Assembly: GCA_965247685.1 (NCBI GenBank) | Contig: OZ252021.1 | Location: forward strand, 240,001-272,000 | Source of the DNA: Bdellovibrionales bacterium | GTDB lineage: Bacteria; Bdellovibrionota; Bdellovibrionia; Bdellovibrionales; UBA1609 | Direction of reading: 5' to 3' | Length of the DNA stretch: 32,000 bases | Shown here: positions 5,757-32,000 of the stretch, in pieces | Numbering within the stretch: the stretch's first letter is position 1 | Layout: each line of letters opens with the position of its first letter | Made by a program: the position numbers and the translations under genes | The notes under the pieces: model-generated | The model's database searches: none | The model's input: the letters and a program-made list of their open reading frames with translations, nothing else | Told to the model about the DNA's origin: nothing

Positions 5757-7189
5757 TTAGAGTGATTTTCCAAATAGAGTGAGATACATTAATTTATAAA
5801 TATCCGTATTTTCCATCAAACCCTTCACAAGATTTGAATTTAAACCGGCCGCTTTAATCAGTATACTTCCATGTACATCCTTAGATTGAGGAGAACCCCA
5901 TACAATAGAGAAAGAATATCTTTTAAAAAAGCCTGCTGAACTATATAAAATAGGTTCTCCCGAATACTTTGATTCAGATATAATAAGTCCACCAGAGTTA
6001 CTATCCGAAGTGGTGAGTAAAAGTGTGTTTGGATTTTGCTTTAAAAAATCGTATGCAACACCTAAACTCTCATCCGCTCTTCGACCGGCAACAAGAAAAC
6101 CTTTGGTGTTACTTAAGTTTGGAAAATTGTCTGTCCCCTCTTCCTCTACGACAATAAAAAATTGCTTCTTTTTATTCTCTAAGAACTTGAGAGCACTAGC
6201 TGTCATTTGGGCAATAGTCGGTGCTTTTTTCTCATAGTAGGGTAATCTTTGATTTTTTATTTCTTCTTCAGTAACACTATTAAAAGTGTGATCATGAGCA
6301 AAGATCCCTAAAATTTTTGCAGCATTCAAATGCTGATTGAAGTTTTTTAAGTCATAGATGACAGTGTAACCCATCTCTTGAGCTTTTTGAATCATATTGA
6401 GATTGTCTTTTCGAAATCCTAAACCAAAGCGCCCTTGTACCCCTTCAGGAAGTAAAAATTTTTCACCACCTGCAAAGATAAGATCCACGCCTGATTCAAT
6501 AACCTGTTTTGCAATGTCATCATCATTTTGCCTAGATGAAACTTGTGCAACAAAAGCAGCTGTACCTGGCTCAACAATGGAGCCAGATTGGCACAATGCT
6601 GTGATCAAGCCTTTTTTTTTGCTTCAATGAGTAAAGAATAAGGCTGGTTAGACAAAGAACGAATATGTTTTCCTTGATCCATACCAAAGCTGTCTTTGCC
6701 TGTTTTAATTCCATAAGCATGAATCGTTGCTCCTGCATTGGAAGTAGCTGTCAGCTGCCCTCTAATCGTCCCTCGGTAAATAGCAGTATGAGGAAGCTTA
6801 TCATAGTTGATTTGCCCCTCGAAACCCGCATGATACAGACGAATAGCATCCCAATGAGAAACAGACATACCGTCTGGATGAATAAAGATAACATTACCAT
6901 TTTGAGCAAAATCATCATCTTCTTTTATGAACTTTTTACGAGGTAATTTGCATCCACTTTTATTGCAACGATTTTTTTTACACTTCTCACATTTCTTTTT
7001 ACTACATTTCTTGCACTTGCTTTTATGACTGCACTTCTTCTTGCTGCATTGATGCTCTTTGTATTTTTGCCCATGATGGTGCCTTCTTTCACAACAGCTT
7101 GTTTTTTGAAACACAGAACAAGAAGAAGAAAAAAAGAATAAACTCATTAATATAGCTAAAGTTTTCCATTGCTTGAATATATTAATCAC
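5757..7189 (-). pseudogene. Alkaline-phosphatase-superfamily exported protein, split into two ORFs (6605..7189 and 5757..6608) by a frameshift in an A9 homopolymer
   Basis: The upstream ORF has a signal peptide, then FIHPDGMS and LTATSNAGATIHAYGIKTG (PhoA-like DGMG and D-S-A-A nucleophile regions). It ends ...EAKKKA* inside gca-aaa-aaa-aag-gct-tga, which corresponds to plus-strand T9 at 6612..6620. One extra A reads EAKKKGLITALCQSGSIVEPGTAAF..., joining seamlessly to the downstream ORF (FFIVVEEEGTD, LLLTTSDSNSGG, DVHGSIL). Confidence 0.65.
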
Positions 7190-24741: not shown

Positions 24742-27174
24742 ATGCAAGAAAAGAAAATACTGCCTTTATTATCTCTCAGAGACTTAGTGGTTTTCCCTCA
24801 AATGATGCTTCCTCTCTTTGTAGGACGAGAAAAAAGTATGCAGGCTCTTAAAGAAGCTATGCGCACAAAATCGGATATTGTGCTTGCTACACAAAGACAA
24901 GCTAAAAATGATCACCCCGAGCCTAAAGAAATTTTTCCAATAGGGACTGTGAGTACTATTATTCAACATCTTCACCTTGCTGATGGAACTATTAAAATCA
25001 TGGTTGAAGGTAAATATCGAGTCAAAATTCTTAACTTTGAAGAAGAAGATAAATTTTTCAAAGTTAAAGTCCAACAAGTGCAAGAGATTGTGTCGGACAA
25101 AACACATGCCCGCGCTTTAACACGAATGGTCTGCCAAGCTTTTGAAACTTTCGTTAAACTTAATCGGCAAATGGCGGCTGAAACTGTGGCGCGTGCTTAT
25201 GCCATAAAAGAATACAGTGTTCTTGCAGACTATATCGCCTCTCAGCTCAATTTAAAGATGGAAGACAAACAAATGCTCCTAGAAATCACAGATGCAGGTG
25301 AAAGACTTAGAGAAGTCCTTAAATGCATTACCAATGAAATTGAAATTATAAAAGCAGAAAGAAAAATTCGCACTCGTGTGAAAGAACAAATGGAACGATC
25401 ACAGCGAGAATACTATCTGAACGAACAATTGCAAGCGATTCAAAAAGAACTCGGCGAAAAAGATGATTACCAAAACGAATTGAAAGAATTTCAACAAAAG
25501 CTGGATAAAAAGAAAGTTAGCACTGAGGCCAAAGAGAAAGTAGAAAAAGAAATTAAAAAATTAAAAATGATGTCTTCTATGAGTGCTGAAGCTACAGTGG
25601 TGAGGAATTATGTGGACTGGGTACTCTCTTTACCGTGGATGGACTATGCTAGAGAAAAGAAAAATATCAGTTCTGCAGAGCGAATTTTAAATAATGACCA
25701 TTGGGGTTTAAACCGTGTCAAAGAAAGAATTCTGGAACATTTAGCCGTTCGCTCTTTGACAAAAGATTTTTCGAGCCCTATTTTATGTTTTGTAGGCCCT
25801 CCGGGAGTAGGAAAAACTTCTTTAGCTCGATCTATCGCTAAATCTTTAAGCCGCCCTTTTGCTCGCATATCTTTAGGAGGCGTCCAAGACGAGGCGGAAG
25901 TGCGAGGACATCGCCGAACTTATGTAGGAGCGATGCCCGGTAAAATTATCCAAGCAATGAGAAAGGTCAAAAAAGGAAATCCTGTAATGCTCCTTGATGA
26001 AGTAGACAAAATGAGTATGCAGTTTAGAGGGGATCCAGCAGCTGCACTGCTGGAAGCTTTAGATCCAGAACAAAATGGCACTTTTCAAGATCATTACCTA
26101 GAGTTAGATTACGACCTATCTCCTATCTTCTTTATTACAACGGCTAACTCCACACACCCTATTCCACGCCCACTTTTAGATCGTATGGAAGTCATTTCCA
26201 TTGAGGGCTACATCGAAAGTGAAAAACTGAATATTGCTAAAAAACATTTACTTTCAAAACAAATCAGAAAACATGGTCTAGAGCCCTACAATGTTCAAAT
26301 CACGGACTCTGGTTTGAAAGAAATTATACGTTACTACACTCGAGAAGCAGGAGTGCGAAACTTAGAAAGACAAATTGCTTCCATCTTGAGAAAGGTGGCT
26401 AAAGAAGTAGTCACCAAGAAAATTGAACCTCAGACTAAGAAAAAAGGTTTTGCTATTAACCATCGTTCTATTAAAGATTATCTAGGTGAGAGAAGACATC
26501 GATTAGGTCATACAGAGAAAGAAAACGAGATTGGACTCACTAATGGCTTAGCTTGGACAGAAACAGGTGGTGATTTGCTCGTTGTAGAAGCTTCTGTAGT
26601 TCCAGGCAAGGGGAAGTTTATTTTGACGGGGCAAATGGGTGATGTCATGAAGGAGTCTTGCTCTGCAGCTCTCAGTTACGTTCGCTCTCGAGGACCTCTA
26701 TTTGATTTTCCAAAAGAATTCTTTGAACAACACGACTTCCATATTCATGTTCCTGAAGGAGCTGTCCCTAAAGATGGTCCTTCCGCAGGTATTGCTCTCA
26801 CATGCAGTATTGTTTCTGCAATCACTAAATTTCCAGTGAAGAGAACAATTGCAATGACGGGTGAGGTGACTCTTAGAGGAAGAGTAATCGCTATTGGAGG
26901 GCTGAAAGAAAAAATAATAGCTGCTTATCGAGAAGGAATTAAAACTATACTCATTCCGAAAGAAAATGAAAAAGATTTGAGAGATAAGAATGTGGGTATT
27001 CCAAAAGAAATCTTAGAAAAGATCGAAGTGATCACTGTCAATCACGTCGATCAAGTCTTAGTGAATACTTTGGTTATTAAATCTGCCCATCAACTTTTCA
27101 AATCACAAGCTCAAAAGAGTTCTGGATTAAAAGCTAAGTACACCGGACACGAGAGTTATACACACTCTCATTAA
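24742..27174 (+). CDS. lon: ATP-dependent Lon protease
   Basis: 810-aa ORF with Walker A GPPGVGKTS, the catalytic Ser in DGPSAGIA and the Lys in GGLKEKI. Confidence 0.95.
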   Translation: MQEKKILPLLSLRDLVVFPQMMLPLFVGREKSMQALKEAMRTKSDIVLATQRQAKNDHPEPKEIFPIGTVSTIIQHLHLADGTIKIMVEGKYRVKILNFEEEDKFFKVKVQQVQEIVSDKTHARALTRMVCQAFETFVKLNRQMAAETVARAYAIKEYSVLADYIASQLNLKMEDKQMLLEITDAGERLREVLKCITNEIEIIKAERKIRTRVKEQMERSQREYYLNEQLQAIQKELGEKDDYQNELKEFQQKLDKKKVSTEAKEKVEKEIKKLKMMSSMSAEATVVRNYVDWVLSLPWMDYAREKKNISSAERILNNDHWGLNRVKERILEHLAVRSLTKDFSSPILCFVGPPGVGKTSLARSIAKSLSRPFARISLGGVQDEAEVRGHRRTYVGAMPGKIIQAMRKVKKGNPVMLLDEVDKMSMQFRGDPAAALLEALDPEQNGTFQDHYLELDYDLSPIFFITTANSTHPIPRPLLDRMEVISIEGYIESEKLNIAKKHLLSKQIRKHGLEPYNVQITDSGLKEIIRYYTREAGVRNLERQIASILRKVAKEVVTKKIEPQTKKKGFAINHRSIKDYLGERRHRLGHTEKENEIGLTNGLAWTETGGDLLVVEASVVPGKGKFILTGQMGDVMKESCSAALSYVRSRGPLFDFPKEFFEQHDFHIHVPEGAVPKDGPSAGIALTCSIVSAITKFPVKRTIAMTGEVTLRGRVIAIGGLKEKIIAAYREGIKTILIPKENEKDLRDKNVGIPKEILEKIEVITVNHVDQVLVNTLVIKSAHQLFKSQAQKSSGLKAKYTGHESYTHSH

Positions 27175-27213
27175 ACCTCAATCCAAAATAAAATACCATA
27201 TCTTAAGGTAAAG

Positions 27214-27250
27214 TTTGAAAAATTTTCACACTTTCAAATTTTTATTTATT
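27214..27250 (+). terminator. Weak AT-rich hairpin plus T-run downstream of lon (possible intrinsic terminator)
   Basis: TTTGAAA (27214..27220) pairs with TTTCAAA (27232..27238). The stem can extend to about 10 bp with one G-U pair, the loop is 11 nt, and tttttatttattt follows. Confidence 0.3.
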
Positions 27251-27280
27251 TCAATATTTAAGTATGATAAAAACCAAGAA

Positions 27281-27300
27281 GGACAATCTGTGGACTATCT
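27281..27300 (+). promoter_or_regulatory. 11-bp-period direct repeat upstream of the winged-helix regulator gene (candidate operator)
   Basis: GGACAATCT (27281) - gt - GGACTATCT (27292) is followed at once by TTGTAAT. It lies about 60-80 nt upstream of the TTG start. Confidence 0.25.
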
Positions 27301-27357
27301 TTGTAATTTTTACACACCACAAGAATCAGAAAAAAACCTAGGGCGGGGGAGTTAAGT

Positions 27358-28644
27358 TTGGATCATATAGTAAGTAGAAAAAATCAAGCAGACTATCTGT
27401 TCGAACTTGGGAAGGCTCGCAGCTTGTCTGGCAATTTTTTAGGCTCCATCCGACTCCTTGAGCAGGCTTCCACTCTTTACTTCAACCAAAGAAGATATGA
27501 AGAATATATGGACAGCCTCTGCATTCTTCTAAGAATTTACAAAGAATTGACTGAGGATGAAAAGATTCAACAAATCAAAGAGGAGTTGACCGCTTTATCT
27601 TGGGAACAAAATGTGAGCTTAAACTCCCGTGTGCACTACATTTTAGGACAATGTGCTTTATATAAAGATCAACTTGATGAAGCTCAGGAAGAATTTGAAA
27701 AATCTCTCAATAAGTCTAAAGATTTACTGAAACAATCCACAACTGAAACTGAGAGTATGGAAGCGCAATTTGAAATCATACACCCTACTTTTGGTTTAGC
27801 TATAATGGATATAAGAAGAAATAAGGTGACAGAGGCAACCAATAAAATCAAATCTATTAAAAACAAAATCCAATCATTTCAAGATATTGAAAAAAATGAT
27901 GAAGAATTAAGAAAACAACTCAATTCTCCTGAGGATATTTGTTCAGTTCGTGATTTTCTTACAAAAACTTCAAACCCTAGAGAGAAAATGGAATTAGCAG
28001 TAGAGTTCCTTTATGTAGATACTTTATGCTTACAAAAACTTTATAGAGAAGCAGAAAAACATCTATGGTACTGCTACGAAAATATGCAAAACTCAAAAGA
28101 TCTTTATACTATTGTCACCTTCTTTTATTATTTGGGTAAAAACTATATGGATCTCCAAGATCATGAGCAAGCTTACATCTTTTTGAACTTAGCAAAAAAA
28201 TCTATTGATGCTAATAACTTTAAACATCTTAATACTCATGTGAAAATCTGTTTGAAACAATTACAAGAGATCAAAGGTTCAGGTTATGATCTTATCGTGA
28301 ACTTAAAAAACAATTCAATTATCGAAAGGCACAAAGGTAAAGTTGCATTTAAAAGCCAGTATATATTGATGGATCTTTTTAAAATTTTTCTCAATCGCCC
28401 CGGTACTGTATACACCAAAGAGCAAATAGCAGAAGAATTATGGAGAGAAAAATACAATCCTAGTGTGCATAACAATAAAATTTATGTGACCATTAAAAGA
28501 CTAAGAGAGCTTATGGAGCCTAACTGTCAAAGTCCAACTTATATTTTTAGAAATAAGGACGGCTATTACTTTAATAAAAATGCAAAAGTTTTGTTAAAGT
28601 ACAAAGACAAAAATCAATCTCAACATCCAGAGGTGTCTTTATGA
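27358..28644 (+). CDS. Cytoplasmic transcriptional regulator: N-terminal TPR-like helical-repeat domain plus a C-terminal OmpR/PhoB-type winged-helix DNA-binding domain, with no receiver domain
   Basis: TTG start 6 nt after GGGGGAG. TPR-like helix pairs include YILGQCALYKDQLDEAQEEFEKSL and FFYYLGKNYMDLQDHEQAYIFLNLAKKSI. The C-terminus YILMDLFKIFLNRPGTVYTKEQIAEELWREKYNPSVHNNKIYVTIKRLRELME...YIFRNKDGYYF matches the Trans_reg_C pattern. Confidence 0.75.
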   Translation: MDHIVSRKNQADYLFELGKARSLSGNFLGSIRLLEQASTLYFNQRRYEEYMDSLCILLRIYKELTEDEKIQQIKEELTALSWEQNVSLNSRVHYILGQCALYKDQLDEAQEEFEKSLNKSKDLLKQSTTETESMEAQFEIIHPTFGLAIMDIRRNKVTEATNKIKSIKNKIQSFQDIEKNDEELRKQLNSPEDICSVRDFLTKTSNPREKMELAVEFLYVDTLCLQKLYREAEKHLWYCYENMQNSKDLYTIVTFFYYLGKNYMDLQDHEQAYIFLNLAKKSIDANNFKHLNTHVKICLKQLQEIKGSGYDLIVNLKNNSIIERHKGKVAFKSQYILMDLFKIFLNRPGTVYTKEQIAEELWREKYNPSVHNNKIYVTIKRLRELMEPNCQSPTYIFRNKDGYYFNKNAKVLLKYKDKNQSQHPEVSL

Positions 28645-29321
28645 AAAAACATTCTTCTTTATTATTCCTCATTTTCTGTTTATGGGGAATGGATGCAAAT
28701 GCATGGAATAATGATATCCAATGGAATCATCCGGTCTATCAAGATACTGCGAGCCCTTATGCTCCTTTCCCTTGGCCTTGCGATGAGTATGGTGACTGTG
28801 CAGACAAGAATTTCTTAGGTAGTAAAAATCAAGACAGCCCTTATGCTCCTTTCCCTTGGCCTTGCGATGAGTATGGCGACTGTGCAGACAATAATTTCTT
28901 AGGTAGTAAAAATCAAGACAGCCCTTATGCTCCTTTCCCTTGGCCTTGCGATGAGTATGGCGACTGTGCAGACAATAATTTCTTAGGTGGTAAAAATCAA
29001 GACAGCCCTTATGCTCCTTTCCCTTGGCCTTGCGATGAGTATGGCGACTGTGCAGACAATAATTTCTTAGGTGGTAAAAATCAAGACAGCCCTTACGCTC
29101 CTTTCCCTTGGCCTTGCGATGAATATGGCGACTGTGCAGAAAAGATAGGTGAACATAATTTGAGCATTGATCATGACGAAAACTCTGAAGATTTTGAGAT
29201 TGAAAAATCATTAGAACAAGCTCATCAGAATAATTTCATTTCCTCTCTTTTAGACGATTGGATATGCCAGACTCAAGAAGAAGATTGTGATTATAACAGT
29301 AACAGTGTATTTGTTTGGTAA
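28641..29321 (+). CDS. Secreted acidic tandem-repeat protein: five copies of a ~28-aa C-x6-C unit, with no family I recognise
   Basis: The ATG overlaps the regulator's TGA (ATGA), and AGAGG lies 7 nt upstream. The signal peptide is MKKHSSLLFLIFCLWGMDANA|W. Five copies of SPYAPFPWPCDEYGDCA(DNNFLG[S/G]KNQD) follow, then an acidic tail with a sixth loop, CQTQEEDC. Confidence 0.8.
   Translation: MKKHSSLLFLIFCLWGMDANAWNNDIQWNHPVYQDTASPYAPFPWPCDEYGDCADKNFLGSKNQDSPYAPFPWPCDEYGDCADNNFLGSKNQDSPYAPFPWPCDEYGDCADNNFLGGKNQDSPYAPFPWPCDEYGDCADNNFLGGKNQDSPYAPFPWPCDEYGDCAEKIGEHNLSIDHDENSEDFEIEKSLEQAHQNNFISSLLDDWICQTQEEDCDYNSNSVFVW
28752..29140. repeat. About 4.6 copies of a near-identical 84-bp in-frame tandem repeat
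   Basis: agcccttatgctcctttcccttggccttgcgatgagtatggcgactgtgcagac... starts at 28752, 28836, 28920, 29004 and 29088, an exact 84-bp period. Only a handful of substitutions separate the copies. Confidence 0.95.
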
Positions 29322-29377
29322 AGCTTTCTTTTGCAAAAAAAATTAAAATCACAATAAAGAAGCCTTTCTTTTAGATA

Positions 29378-29406
29378 TTGCATTCAAGTTTTTGAAATGA
29401 TAAAAC
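29378..29406 (+). promoter_or_regulatory. Putative promoter for tRNA-Val
   Basis: TTGCAT (29378..29383), a 17-nt spacer, then TAAAAC (29401..29406) preceded by TGa. The tRNA 5' end is at 29423. Confidence 0.35.
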
Positions 29407-29422
29407 TTAAGACGATTTTTAT

Positions 29423-29498
29423 AGGAGGTTAGCTCAGTTGGTAGAGCGCCACCCTTACAAGGTGGATGTCGTCGGTTCGAGCCCGGCACCTCCTACCA
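29423..29498 (+). tRNA. tRNA-Val, anticodon UAC, with genomically encoded CCA
   Basis: I folded the cloverleaf by hand. Acceptor AGGAGGT/ACCTCCT; D arm GCTC-AGTTGGTA-GAGC; anticodon arm CCACC-CTTACAA-GGTGG (anticodon TAC at 29456..29458). Variable loop ATGTC; T arm GTCGG-TTCGAGC-CCGGC; discriminator A, then CCA. Confidence 0.93.
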
Positions 29499-29501
29499 TC
29501 A

Positions 29502-31046
29502 TCATAATACATCTATCGCTTTTTGGTATCCCATATTTGCTGCTCTTTCATAGTAGGAAACCGCTTTTTCACGATCTCGCTCAACCCCTTCCCCTTTATC
29601 ATACATAATTCCTACATTATAAAGGGCAAGTGGGTGATTCATATTTGCTGCCCTTTCATAGTAGGAAAATGCTTTTTCAAAATCTTGCTCAGCCCCTTCT
29701 CCGTAATAATACATCTCTCCTAACTTAACAAGAGTACTTTCCAATTCATCTATCGCTTTTGGGTATCCCATATTTGCTACTCTTTCATAGTAGGAAAACG
29801 CTTTTTCACGATCTCGCTCAACCCCTTCCCCTTTATCATACATAATTCCTACATTATAAAGGGCAAGTGGGTGATTCATATTTGCTGCTCTTTCATAGTA
29901 GGAAATTGCTTTTTCACGATCTCGCTCAACCCCTTCTCCGTAATAATACATCTCTCCTAACTTAACAAGAGTACTTTCCAATTCATCTATCGCTTTTTGG
30001 TATCCCATACTTGCTGCTCTTTCATAGTAGGAAATCGCTTTTTCACGATCTCGCTCAACCCCTTCCCCATTATCATACATAGCTCCTACATTATAAGGAG
30101 CAAGTAGGTGATTCATATTTGCTGCTCTTTCAAAGTAGGAAACCGCTTTTTTAAAATCTTTCTTAACTCCTTTTCCGTAATAATACATCTCTCCTAAATT
30201 AAAAAGAGCAATTGGGTGATTCAATTCTGCTCCCTTGGACAAATAACGAACAATATCATCCGTTGAAAAAAGAAAGTTCTCTAAGAGACCACGTGGAAAA
30301 TGAAAAAATGTTCCCTCTTTTTTTGGAATTAAATAATTAGAATCTAGTAGCTGATTAATCAATTTTTTTGCCTTTAAAATCTCATAATCAATACATTTTC
30401 TTGGTTGATTTCCACACACTGTTCCTATATGATTGTATAAAAGTTCTTGCAAATAAGATGACAAAATACTCATTACATAAGATTCAGAAGCGGAATAAAG
30501 TATACCTAGAAGACTGCCTTTTGAATCGAGCAATGGGCCACCACTCATTCCTTCAACATTTTCTACAAAACCAAGTTCAAAAAATGCTCCATAATAAACA
30601 TTCTCCATTATGTTAATCTCTCTTACACTTCTTATAGTTACAGGTTTTCTCATCTTCCTTGGGTAACCAATTGTAAACCCTCCCTCATGAAATAAACTCT
30701 TCTCCCCTTCTGATAAATAAATATCCGACTTTTGTTCTGTCCGGAAGATAGCTAGATCAGCGTAGACGGAAATAGATACTAATTTTTTAACTTTTATAGA
30801 AGGTTTATCATCACGATCTAAAGAAATGTCTTTTATATCTTTAATCCCATTAATGACATGAAAATTAGTCACGAACAGATCAGGTGCTATAAAAAATCCA
30901 GTGCCATTAACATATCCATCGTCTATTACAACTTTATAAGTAGCTTGTTCGGCTTTTAAAACTCCTTCTGGAAGATCAGAGGCGTAGGAGTAGGCTCCTA
31001 ATAACAAATAGGTATAAACTATCAAATATAGTAGGAAGATTCTCAT
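29502..31046 (-). CDS. Secreted trypsin-fold (S1-like) serine protease fused to six C-terminal Sel1-like repeats
   Basis: Signal peptide MRIFLLYLIVYTYLLLGAYSYA|S. Catalytic contexts are GTGFFIAPDLFVTNFHVI (His), YADLAIFR (Asp) and GMSGGPLLD (Ser). The C-terminal half has repeated GEMYYYGEGVERDREKAISYYERAA units, which are Sel1/SLR-like. Confidence 0.85.
   Translation of the reverse strand: MRIFLLYLIVYTYLLLGAYSYASDLPEGVLKAEQATYKVVIDDGYVNGTGFFIAPDLFVTNFHVINGIKDIKDISLDRDDKPSIKVKKLVSISVYADLAIFRTEQKSDIYLSEGEKSLFHEGGFTIGYPRKMRKPVTIRSVREINIMENVYYGAFFELGFVENVEGMSGGPLLDSKGSLLGILYSASESYVMSILSSYLQELLYNHIGTVCGNQPRKCIDYEILKAKKLINQLLDSNYLIPKKEGTFFHFPRGLLENFLFSTDDIVRYLSKGAELNHPIALFNLGEMYYYGKGVKKDFKKAVSYFERAANMNHLLAPYNVGAMYDNGEGVERDREKAISYYERAASMGYQKAIDELESTLVKLGEMYYYGEGVERDREKAISYYERAANMNHPLALYNVGIMYDKGEGVERDREKAFSYYERVANMGYPKAIDELESTLVKLGEMYYYGEGAEQDFEKAFSYYERAANMNHPLALYNVGIMYDKGEGVERDREKAVSYYERAANMGYQKAIDVL
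29511..30205. repeat. About 2.9 copies of a 237-bp tandem repeat (each is two Sel1 units plus a linker) inside the protease-Sel1 gene
   Basis: atctatcgcttttt... recurs at 29511, 29748 and 29985. The first two copies are almost identical and the third decays toward 30205. Confidence 0.85.
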
Positions 31047-31096
31047 AATAAACCCTTTTTAACATTTTGAGGGGGTTGCTCAACAAAAACTCTTTT

Positions 31097-31142
31097 ACTA
31101 TATAAAATGATAACCTTGTCTACAAGTCTTGACCTGTCAAGA
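31097..31142 (-). promoter_or_regulatory. Putative promoter (minus strand TTGTAG-17-TATAGT) with an adjacent perfect palindrome, upstream of the protease-Sel1 gene
   Basis: The minus-strand -10 TATAGT is at 31097..31102 and the -35 TTGTAG at 31120..31125. The palindrome TCTTGAC-ct-GTCAAGA at 31127..31142 sits immediately upstream of the -35. Confidence 0.3.
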
Positions 31143-31259
31143 TGTTTAAAAATAACTAAGAAGAGTAGAAGGATAATCACTCCTGCAAAAAACTTTTATT
31201 AGGATCAATTTAAAAACTTTGGATTAGGATAGTTCCTTCATAATCTCTCCATTAATTCC

Positions 31260-32000
31260 CTACCTGAAGAAATCACTTTTTTTAAACTTCACCCTTTCTC
31301 CTCTATGATCCATAGCTTCTAAAGAAAAGAGAGCAAGTGGATAACCCATACTGGCTGCTCTTTCATAGTAGGAAACCGCTTTTTTATGGTCTTTCTTAAC
31401 CCCTTTCCCCTCATGGTACATAACTCCTAAATCAAAAAGAGCCTCTGAGAGATTCATCTTTGCTGCTCCTTCATAATAGGAGATTGCTTTTTCACTATCT
31501 TGCTCGACTCCTTTCCCCACATGGTACATCGATCCTAAATGAAAAAGAGCAATTGGGTGATTCAATTCTGCGCCCTTGGACAAATAACGAACAATATCAT
31601 CTGTTGAAACAAAAAATCTCTCAAAGGTTTCTATTGGAAGATGAAAAAATGTTCTCTCTTTTTTTGGAATTAAATAATTAGAATCTAATTGCTGAGTGAT
31701 CAGTTTTTTTACCTTTTGAATCTCTTGATCAATACATTTTCTTGGCTGATTTTCACACACTGTTCCTATATGATTATCTAAAAGTTCTTGCAAATAAGAT
31801 GACCAAACACTCTTTCCAAAATTAAAACCAAAAGTAGCAGAAAATATGCCCAGAAGATTGCCTTTCGAATCGAGCAATGGGCCACCACTCATTCCTCCAA
31901 TATCTCCTATAACAGGGAGTTTAAAAGATACTGCATAATAAACATTCTCCATTATTTTAATCTCTCCTACACTTCTTATAGTTACAGGTTTCCTCATCTT
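31260..32000 (-). CDS. Paralog of the protease-Sel1 fusion protein. The C-terminal 246 codons are present and the 5' end lies beyond the window.
   Basis: The ORF is open to position 32000. GGMSGGPLLDSKGNLLGIF and the downstream region align with 29502..31046 (for example caattgggtgattcaattctg at both 30210 and 31550). Three to four Sel1-like units lie at the C-terminus. Confidence 0.8.
   Translation of the reverse strand, partial: KMRKPVTIRSVGEIKIMENVYYAVSFKLPVIGDIGGMSGGPLLDSKGNLLGIFSATFGFNFGKSVWSSYLQELLDNHIGTVCENQPRKCIDQEIQKVKKLITQQLDSNYLIPKKERTFFHLPIETFERFFVSTDDIVRYLSKGAELNHPIALFHLGSMYHVGKGVEQDSEKAISYYEGAAKMNLSEALFDLGVMYHEGKGVKKDHKKAVSYYERAASMGYPLALFSLEAMDHRGERVKFKKSDFFR

Follow-up and report, generated by a model that had tools for sequence, protein, structure and literature searches.

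A stretch of 32,000 nucleotides from a Bdellovibrionales bacterium (contig OZ252021.1 of assembly GCA_965247685.1, positions 240,001 to 272,000 of the forward strand; this whole stretch is called the window) encodes a two-gene module in which a cytoplasmic transcriptional regulator, composed of a tetratricopeptide repeat (TPR) superhelix followed by an OmpR/PhoB-type winged helix, overlaps the gene of a predicted Sec-exported partner protein that carries five copies of a short proline- and tryptophan-containing core. Judged by sequence comparison, the module is undescribed, is present as a single copy throughout the sampled Bdellovibrionales, and is not a stand-alone oddity of this locus. The only family-wide feature of the partner is a short proline/aromatic motif, P-x-x-P-phi-P-W/phi-P, which is also the only plausible specific input of the regulator. 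The reading that we tentatively adopt, and to which we assign a little short of an even chance on the basis of sequences and structural models, is that the TPR domain of the regulator reads the motif of its partner, and that occupancy of the TPR domain would control DNA binding by the winged helix. No paper on the pair, on the motif or on TPR-winged-helix regulators in Bdellovibrio was found in the literature, and the public names of the two proteins are simply 'winged helix-turn-helix domain-containing protein' and 'hypothetical protein'.

Domain structure of the regulator

The 428-residue regulator had been described in an earlier note on this DNA, made from the letters and open reading frames (ORFs) alone, as a protein without a signal peptide, transmembrane helix or receiver domain in which TPR-like helices precede an OmpR/PhoB-type winged helix, and Pfam, an AlphaFold2 model and a profile search of the PDB all agree with that description. 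Pfam assigns Trans_reg_C (PF00486) to residues 338-397 with an E value of 1.3e-10 and a score of 41.6 bits against a cut-off of 26.2 bits, and a TPR_2 repeat to residues 91-120; it finds no BTAD domain, and neither Pfam nor NCBIfam matches a receiver (Response_reg) domain, the N-terminal 306 residues being all-helical TPR. The matches in NCBIfam are restricted to the DNA-binding ends of VanR, YycF and PhoB-type regulators (LcrH_SycD lies far below its threshold, with an E value of 0.007 and 16 bits against a cut-off of 105), and the PDB profile search aligns residues 341-410 with the DNA-binding domains of WalR, YycF, PhoB and OmpR. The AlphaFold2 model, which has a mean pLDDT of 89.4 with 35 homologues in the alignment, is made up of 15 helices (residues 7-306) and, in residues 312-414, a three-strand sheet followed by three helices and a beta-wing. 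No transmembrane helix or signal peptide was recognized, and the protein is taken to be soluble because its most hydrophobic 19-residue window scores just 0.82 on the Kyte-Doolittle scale. The regulator is a one-component transcription factor with a TPR domain in place of a receiver, and the TPR domain is its only recognizable sensory domain.

A search of 5.8 billion proteins returned 85 homologues of the regulator, with 28-100% identity and 88-100% of its length aligned. These homologues (413-454 residues) align from residues 1-10 and retain G18, G25 and Y50, which indicates that the long ORF with the TTG start is real and that the public protein P0001 appears to be truncated at its N-terminus; P0001 as deposited has 378 residues, its start lying 50 codons after the TTG at 27358, and omits 27358..27507.

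Conservation is strongest in the winged helix, where the recognition helix (residues 368-386) is near-invariant in the family and H371, N373, K374, Y376, V377, T378, K380, R381, L382 and R383 are invariant. The conserved residues of the TPR domain are G18, G25, Y50, L57, E63, W237, Y240, E241, Y263, L276, N277 and L278, of which W237, Y240, E241, Y263 and N277 are kept in every class of partner, as is the P-x-P-phi core of the motif. The earlier note had also supposed that the N-terminal domain is a TPR of the peptide-binding type, and the modeled superhelix is in keeping with this: its nearest Foldseek matches are LGN/Pins proteins (E values of 9e-6 to 1e-4), whose superhelices wrap around extended peptides, and the next are domain III of MalT, then RapI (4i1a) and peptide-bound RapJ (4gyo) with E values of 5e-4 to 1e-3. 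RapJ is found by the PDB profile search as well, with an E value of 0.0099. The TM-scores of the Foldseek matches are low (0.3-0.45), as expected because superhelices are flexible.

Linkage of regulator and partner

The junction of the two genes is of the kind that permits translational coupling, with the sequence ATGA providing both the start codon of the partner and the stop codon of the regulator, and with an AGAGG Shine-Dalgarno sequence inside the 3' end of the regulator gene, 7 nucleotides before the partner ATG. Both elements had been pointed out before and are present in the sequence, and the identical 4-nucleotide overlap is found in 14 related loci, so that it is not due to chance. 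In the family as a whole the second gene has the orientation of the first, is co-transcribed with it and is often coupled to its translation. The same 5.8 billion proteins contain 14 matches to the repeat protein, one of which is the window's own product, and the contigs that encode the other 13 also encode regulator homologues. Gene-by-gene inspection confirmed adjacency with the 4-nucleotide overlap in six of the related loci (L001, L002, L003, L008, L089 and L090).

A scan of one genome per species, covering 185,579 species, confirmed 354 stretches that encode relatives of the module, and the best 80 of these 354 are all labeled Bdellovibrionales or Bdellovibrionota. The loci include those of Bdellovibrio bacteriovorus strains s4 and Bd16 and of Bdellovibrio sp. 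HCB117 and HCB337, and there is mostly one locus per genome (L021 and L022 seem to come from one organism). The set of related loci used for comparison comprises 91 (L001-L091), of which 83 were distinct and evaluable in a scripted survey of downstream ORFs. The earlier note had singled out linkage of regulator homologues to a secreted downstream ORF as one of the observations that could refute its proposal if absent, and in this survey a plus-strand ORF with a signal-peptide-like N-terminus follows the regulator at 82 of the 83 loci, within 40 nucleotides on either side of the regulator stop codon in 77 of the 82. At L008, L014, L018-L020 and L033 the downstream ORF has no proline/aromatic motif: the proteins at L018-L020 have signal peptides and 260-285 residues, that at L033 is an ORF of 65 residues, and L014 has no exported neighbor.

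The usual gene order is pepA (minus strand), clpP, clpX, lon, regulator and partner, and lon lies directly upstream on the same strand at 55 of the 74 loci that have enough flanking sequence, so that the regulator and the proteostasis genes may be functionally connected. The pair stays joined where the clpP-clpX-lon context has been lost (L003, L009-L011 and L091), and the flanks differ completely between L001, L002, L003 and L091. Because the pair stays together when its flanks change, the two genes are a conserved unit, and the module is kept in genomes of 1.2-1.6 Mb. The position of lon is one of the observations that suit a plain regulator-target operon, in which the regulator controls, and is co-expressed with, a secreted protein that it does not sense, the TPR domain answering some other cytoplasmic protein or signal, possibly one tied to the ClpXP/Lon proteostasis genes, while the motif acts outside the cytoplasm. 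This explanation, the main rival to sensing of the motif, is quite possible, although we give it appreciably less than an even chance: it leaves unexplained why regulator and partner have stayed attached over more than 80 species and several relocations, often with overlapping codons, and why just a signal peptide and the motif were retained in reduced genomes.

Upstream of the regulator, eight species of the small-genome clade to which the window belongs (the window, L001, L002, L003, L010, L011, L089 and L090) share the element TGAAAnnTTTACACAC followed by a T-rich tract, about 110-190 nucleotides before the regulator start; it is a candidate operator or promoter and shows no enrichment in the rest of the window. 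At the same place, other Bdellovibrionales have an ordinary TTGACA box, not TGAAAnnTTTACACAC. The palindromic element TTGAAAAATTTTCACA was considered as a regulon-wide operator and rejected, since it is not enriched in the window (8 matches with at most 3 mismatches against 3.6 expected). Scans of 27100..29520 for sigma-70 promoters and terminators gave none above the shuffled expectation and none in intergenic regions.

Partner proteins: from a barrel to an array of motifs

The partner of a typical Bdellovibrio has about 165-235 residues, most often 165-200, and its motif segment lies just after the signal peptide, as DDRWVPWPWAMVQPFPWSDIQGLW in B. bacteriovorus and as DDPVPWPFANHCPFPWQEISGLW or DLLPWPWGSECPFPWTKIEGEW elsewhere. 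Signal peptides were judged throughout from sequence features. The B. bacteriovorus partner, WP_063205493.1, whose gene pair lies downstream of lon, belongs to no Pfam or NCBIfam family, and its model (pLDDT of 89.2) contains the signal peptide, the motif segment in an ordered conformation, an eight-stranded antiparallel barrel and a C-terminal helix, together with a short N-terminal 3-10 helix and a G-x-W signature. The Foldseek matches of the barrel are weak and consistent, comprising designed barrels, nitrophorins, nitrobindin, fatty-acid-binding proteins (FABPs) and avidin with E values of at least 0.04 and TM-scores of 0.3-0.55, and together with the G-x-W signature the model indicates a calycin-like fold. 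The unnamed family of barrel partners (P0100-P0162) has in common the signal peptide, an N-terminal pattern of PWPW..PFPW..G-x-W and the eight-stranded barrel.

The clade of the window is represented by contigs of 1.16-1.6 Mb that are probably whole chromosomes (the G+C content of the window is 35%), and here the partner lacks the barrel and is made up of a signal peptide and copies of the motif, in proteins of 79-375 residues. The motif variants that were seen (Table 1) all fit P-x-x-P-phi-P-phi-P-[C/G]; the motif may be N-terminal, internal or C-terminal, and the smallest form is a protein of 79 residues with one motif. The partners form a clear evolutionary series, in which a folded barrel protein gives way, in the 1.2-1.6 Mb genomes, to nothing but an array of a 10-residue motif. 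That the window partner descends from the barrel family is inferred from its signal peptide, its positional orthology and its P-F-P-W motif; it has no barrel and no sequence match to the barrel family, and it belongs to no Pfam or NCBIfam family. The proposal that the partner is by nature a multi-copy pro-peptide does not hold for the family at large, most members of which are folded, calycin-like barrels of about 165-235 residues with the motif at the N-terminus.

The motif is essentially private to the partner gene. In all loci, 730 unique six-frame ORFs of at least 120 residues (about 240,000 residues) were searched for P[FWD]PW, which occurs in 55 of them; in 54 of these 55 cases the ORF is the one that directly follows the regulator.

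In the window, the signal peptide has two lysines, a hydrophobic core and an A-x-A site, and, as had been noted, is followed by five repeats of 28 residues: the DNA repeats are 98% identical and encode five cores SPYAPFPWPCDEYGDCA, each with a C-x5-C loop, separated by spacers of 11 residues. The PYAPFPWPCD cores recur at exactly 28-residue spacing, as four full units, after which a fifth core leads into a divergent tail. The last residue is aromatic in about half of the repeat-type partners; in the window partner the ending is VFVW (29309..29318), and P0087, P0089, P0091, P0092, P0093 and P0098 are the others, the further endings being VVPF, LFPF, VFPF, SFYF, VSPF and NSAW. Such ends recall the C-terminal aromatic signals of outer-membrane proteins. 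One subclade of the repeat-type partners has a common Q-x-Q-[VIM]-R...PF tail.

Conserved cores (1-7 per protein) with variable spacers and variable copy number are a hallmark of multi-core precursors of ribosomally synthesized and post-translationally modified peptides (RiPPs), and the two cysteines of each core could form a ring, so that the cores might be excised and modified into a secreted natural product with the regulator as pathway regulator. We regard this as very improbable, given that the pair has no conserved neighbor that encodes a maturase, protease or transporter, the flanks of L001, L002, L003 and L091 having nothing in common, that the N-terminus is a Sec signal peptide and not a leader peptide, and that the homologous partners of most genomes are barrel proteins.

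For the barrel proteins, the plain-operon explanation introduced above holds that the motif is a structural or ligand-gating N-terminal segment, with which its prediction as an ordered part of the barrel agrees.

Selection on the motif and on the spacers

The sequence PYAPFPWPCD is invariant across species whose regulators are about 50-77% identical, and every nucleotide difference in the 30-nucleotide core, within the gene and between species, is synonymous (CCT/CCC/CCG/CCA, TAT/TAC, GCT/GCA/GCC, TTC/TTT, TGC/TGT and GAT/GAC). The replacement differences in the array of the window are K/N and S/G only, both in the spacer, and across the clade the spacers vary from 24 to 110 residues. A repeated insert in the spacers of the partner homologue P0088, which is encoded on a 62,080-bp contig that also carries P0012, reads IPAKAGISSNSEEDWIPASAGMTE or VIPAKAGISSNSEEDWIPASAGMTE and resembles a translated palindromic or mobile DNA repeat; the insert has a weak, sub-threshold Pfam match to DUF7734. 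These inserts imply that the spacers tolerate insertions. An antisense ORF (28669..29211, minus strand, 180 residues) across the array is itself repetitive, for which a side effect of the tandem repeat is the best explanation; the plus-strand frame is the coding one because the differences between cores, among copies and among species, are all synonymous in that frame.

On this comparison of sequences, the repeat unit is under purifying selection and the spacers are not. Since the core is invariant and the spacers and barrel are variable, the functional unit is the signal peptide plus the motif, and the rest is dispensable. This argues against a structural exoprotein, which had been the stated alternative to a peptide-signaling cassette and which fits the pattern of selection less well than a peptide-like unit does. 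It argues equally against a degenerating remnant, that is, a slippage-prone, functionless leftover of barrel loss that persists as translation of the regulator runs into it. DNA repeats that are 98% identical do speak of recent slippage or recombination, the genomes are reduced, and an alkaline phosphatase gene elsewhere in the window is split; all the same, a core with only synonymous differences across species, a signal peptide maintained in every lineage and intact ORFs in at least 14 species of the clade bring the remnant explanation close to refutation, and we consider it the least probable of all.

For the repeat proteins, the plain-operon explanation would make the motif a multivalent short linear motif, possibly a Ca2+-binding disulfide loop, directed at a target in the envelope, the prey or the host. 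The partner is acidic (pI 4.05); CDxxxDC is like the Ca2+-binding loop of low-density lipoprotein (LDL) receptor class A modules, to which P0088 has a Pfam match below threshold (E value of 6e-4); and among the proteins of the small genomes are repeat proteins of the Sel1 and ankyrin types, which are typical of host-associated bacteria whose secreted effectors mimic motifs. The cysteine loop is not universal, being absent from the partners of L090, L091, L004 and L005, and for that reason Ca2+ or disulfide chemistry cannot be the conserved function.

A possible peptide-feedback circuit

The reading in which the TPR domain senses the partner would work as follows. The motif would be the ligand of the TPR domain, and occupancy of that domain would set the oligomeric state or the DNA binding of the winged helix and thereby the transcription of the operon, and probably of other genes too, so that the module would report the fate of its own exported product. 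Two routes may be envisaged. In route (a), the partner would be exported and cut by a protease, and peptides containing the motif would be re-imported by a peptide permease, as in RRNPP systems; in route (b), the TPR domain would bind the unfolded precursor in the cytoplasm before Sec export, and the level of free regulator would track export. Several copies of the motif would provide more signal per translation in route (a) or more titration capacity in route (b). The barrel would have been lost in the small-genome lineage and the motif amplified, to five copies in the window and one to seven in its relatives. Quorum sensing across a population seems to us less likely than cell-autonomous feedback, given that the motif does not differ between species and that the module is syntenic and present in a single copy.

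What favors this reading is the linkage of the two genes (82 of 83 loci), the specificity of the motif (54 of 55 ORFs), purifying selection on the core, the resemblance of the TPR domain to peptide-enclosing TPRs including RapI and RapJ, the retention of the pair in reduced genomes and after moves away from clpP-clpX-lon, the dispensability of the rest of the partner, the TPR positions that stay constant over all partner classes, the precedent of tandemly duplicated pheromones in Rap-Phr propeptides (PMC11343458) and the lack of another sensory domain in the regulator; the lack of any other recognizable input domain also counts against a plain regulator-target operon.

Several points weigh against sensing of the motif. 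In most of the family the motif lies in a confidently folded barrel, with pLDDT values of 87-97 over the motif; a barrel partner is unlike a pro-peptide, and, if the models are right, the motif may simply be structural there. Residues of the TPR domain do not covary with the class of partner motif in any interpretable way: the class-specific residues K119, K163, H235 and K261 were tried as candidates and set aside, as they offer no interpretable charge compensation and are confounded by phylogeny. The conserved TPR positions G260, Y263, A272 and A279 belong to the ordinary TPR consensus and do not necessarily indicate where a ligand binds, and the likeness of the TPR domain to Rap proteins may be one that TPRs share in general. 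The module has neither a peptide permease nor a protease as a conserved neighbor, and the window contains no peptide permease and no conserved protease; this and the lack of TPR-motif covariation count in favor of a plain operon. The bacterium is a diderm, so that the exported product is in the periplasm, and release, passage through the outer membrane and re-import are assumptions.

A classical RRNPP-like quorum-sensing system would go further than sensing of the partner, making the window protein a poly-pheromone precursor that is cut by the adjacent trypsin-Sel1 proteases and re-imported in a density-dependent manner. The order of receptor gene and exported-precursor gene, with their coupling, and the resemblance of the TPR fold to Rap proteins are consistent with such a system, and multi-copy pheromone precursors are known in Rap-Phr systems (PMC11343458). 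At L090 (5290..7694) the 79-residue, single-motif partner is followed directly by two BPD_transp_1 genes for permeases of the ATP-binding cassette (ABC) type, which were read as oppB/oppC-like, and genes for an oligo_HPY-containing ABC ATPase and for a protein of 612 residues lie near the module at L089 (6678..9311). We nevertheless judge quorum sensing improbable. The trypsin-Sel1 genes, which had been put forward as candidate processing proteases next door (29502..32000), are unique to the window: a tblastn search of the 91 related loci found no homologue, and the gene lists of the closest relatives do not include them. The module is core-like, mostly one per genome and mostly in a fixed place next to lon, unlike an accessory family that diversifies. 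Species whose regulators differ as described above have the same core peptide, which is the opposite of pherotype divergence; the pherotypes of classical quorum sensing diversify. The partner was ancestrally a folded barrel, a diderm has its outer membrane as a barrier, and linkage to opp genes is seen in one or two loci only.

Sensing of the motif by the TPR domain can be combined with the series of partner forms into a broader proposition, which we hold to be unlikely as a whole: that Bdellovibrionota possess a peptide feedback or signaling circuit analogous to RRNPP, in which a TPR-OmpR-type winged-helix receptor reads a Pro/Trp motif of a Sec-exported, co-translated partner, and that in reduced, probably host-associated lineages a lipocalin-like protein became a multi-copy pro-peptide. 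If this were so, the birth of a peptide signal gene from the N-terminus of a folded protein would be observable.

Surroundings of the module in the window

The features of the module and its immediate neighbors are collected in Table 1. The two paralogous genes that follow the tRNA gene look like a lineage-specific insertion or expansion beside it and not like part of the module; they contain internal repeats of 237 bp and 108 bp with 79-92% identity. The rest of the window is of a housekeeping nature, encoding an SLT transglycosylase, a glutamate-synthase domain protein, FtsX-like permeases, EF-G, RF, YbeY, MurJ, HolA, ETF-QO, HIT, PepA, ClpP, ClpX and Lon. The alkaline phosphatase gene (5757..7189, minus strand) is split into two ORFs that overlap by 4 nucleotides, 6605..7189 corresponding to positions 3-97 of the Pfam profile and 5757..6608 to positions 135-323; it is probably frameshifted or decaying, consistent with genome reduction. 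Genes for an oligopeptide permease or other peptide transporter are not encoded in the 32-kb window, and no permease genes were found in L001-L003 either, so that opp linkage, seen at L090 and loosely at L089, was rejected as a general feature of the module; the peptide-transport genes near the module at those two loci are suggestive, not general.

Table 1. Features of the regulator-partner module, its neighbors in the window, and motif variants of partner proteins
Feature	Position	Strand	Description	Basis
Conserved upstream element	27215..27232	+	TTGAAAAATTTTCACAC; family form TGAAAnnTTTACACAC, followed by T-rich tract; candidate operator/promoter
Regulator gene	27358..28644	+	TTG start, 428 aa; soluble, cytoplasmic	ORF list, Pfam, homologues, AlphaFold2
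TPR superhelix	27376..28275	+	Residues 7-306, 15 helices	AlphaFold2 secondary structure, Foldseek
OmpR/PhoB-type winged-helix DNA-binding domain	28291..28599	+	Residues 312-414	Pfam, PDB profile matches
Translational-coupling junction	28629..28644	+	AGAGG at 28629..28633, ATGA at 28641..28644	Read from sequence
Partner gene	28641..29321	+	226 aa, acidic (pI 4.05), predicted Sec-exported	ORF list, homologues, composition
Predicted Sec signal peptide	28641..28703	+	MKKHSSLLFLIFCLWGMDANA; predicted cleavage after A-N-A	Sequence features
Tandem array	28752..29140	+	84-bp unit, 4.6 copies, 98% matches, score 736	Tandem Repeats Finder
Non-repetitive acidic C-terminal tail	29141..29321	+	Ends VFVW	Translation
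tRNA-Val(TAC)	29423..29498		Directly after partner gene
Two tandem paralogous secreted trypsin-like/Sel1-repeat proteins	29502..31046, 31260..31997	-	Second possibly runs off the window
Motif, 14 proteins of the clade			[ST]PYAPFPWPCDxxxDCA (one with GPFPWPCD), 2-7 copies
Motif, L089 partner			PPYMPDPWPCDEWEAC, 2 copies
Motif, L090 partner (79 aa)			PYLPDPWPYD, 1 copy
Motif, L091 partner (lipobox protein)			GPYMPFPFPG at C-terminus, 1 copy
Motif, L004 partner			EPYPIPAPGVG, 5 copies
Motif, L005 partner			DPLLPIPLPGVG, 3 copies
Motif, L050 partner			AMPIPIPGVG, at least 1 copy

Implications

An unannotated module, usually next to clpP-clpX-lon, is now defined. If a TPR receptor and an exported motif do form a circuit in this order of diderm predators, the logic of peptide cassettes would hold in a further phylum too, there coupled to another kind of DNA-binding output; or else the module may be a Sec-linked export-feedback regulator, for which we know of no precedent. 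The module may bear on the regulation of the life cycle in predatory or host-associated Bdellovibrionota, and the hypothesis is open to direct test in B. bacteriovorus, a genetically tractable species that has the orthologous pair.

Comparison with known systems

The module works most like the RRNPP(A) systems (Rap/Phr, NprR/NprX, PlcR/PapR, PrgX and AimR) and is not a member of them. The likeness consists of a cytoplasmic TPR-type receptor with an adjacent, co-transcribed gene for a Sec-exported precursor, and of the weak matches of the regulator to RapI and RapJ in the Foldseek and PDB profile searches; tandemly duplicated pheromone units, moreover, occur in phage Rap-Phr propeptides (PMC11343458). 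The order of the receptor is reversed, however: RRNPP receptors have an N-terminal XRE-type helix-turn-helix, or the three-helix/phosphatase bundle of Rap, followed by the TPR domain, whereas the DNA-binding domain of the module is a C-terminal OmpR/PhoB winged helix. RRNPP systems are found in Bacillota and in mobile elements and phages, and cassettes of a peptide receptor plus precursor are presented as a hallmark of Bacillota, or Gram-positive bacteria, in one account (PMC10075063); the module is in the diderm Bdellovibrionota. RRNPP systems are accessory and diversifying, whereas the module is single-copy, syntenic and core-like; an RRNPP propeptide has fewer than 100 residues, in contrast to a partner of 79-375 residues or a folded barrel of about 165-235 residues; and the motif of the module is conserved across species, with processing and re-import putative. 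Of the earlier note's proposal of an RRNPP-like cassette, the linkage and the peptide-binding type of TPR fold stand; membership in RRNPP itself fails on the grounds of domain order, type of DNA-binding domain and taxon.

The regulator belongs to the OmpR/PhoB family through its effector domain only: it has a bona fide C-terminal Trans_reg_C winged helix with a highly conserved recognition helix, and it differs from the response regulators of that family in having no receiver or phospho-acceptor and no phosphorelay. Regulators of the SARP/AfsR/EmbR, HilA and ToxR/CadC-like types likewise unite an OmpR-type winged helix with a helical-repeat domain in one polypeptide. In those proteins the winged helix is N-terminal and no obligatory exported partner gene is known, whereas in this regulator it is C-terminal, no BTAD, NB-ARC or transmembrane segment is present, and the exported partner is obligatory. 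The calycins (lipocalins, nitrobindin and nitrophorins, FABPs and avidins) are approached by the eight-stranded barrel and G-x-W signature of the B. bacteriovorus partner, with the differences that the structural matches are weak, that no Pfam or NCBIfam family is matched and that the window partner is without any barrel.

In the type III secretion circuits IpgC-MxiE, SicA-InvF and LcrH/SycD, a TPR chaperone is encoded just before its secreted substrate and binds a short proline-containing motif of the unfolded substrate, and the TPR protein of such class II chaperones becomes a transcriptional co-activator once the substrate has been exported. By analogy, this logic would fit route (b), in which the TPR domain binds the unfolded precursor before export; the module differs in that its TPR domain is fused to a DNA-binding domain and that export is by a Sec signal peptide.

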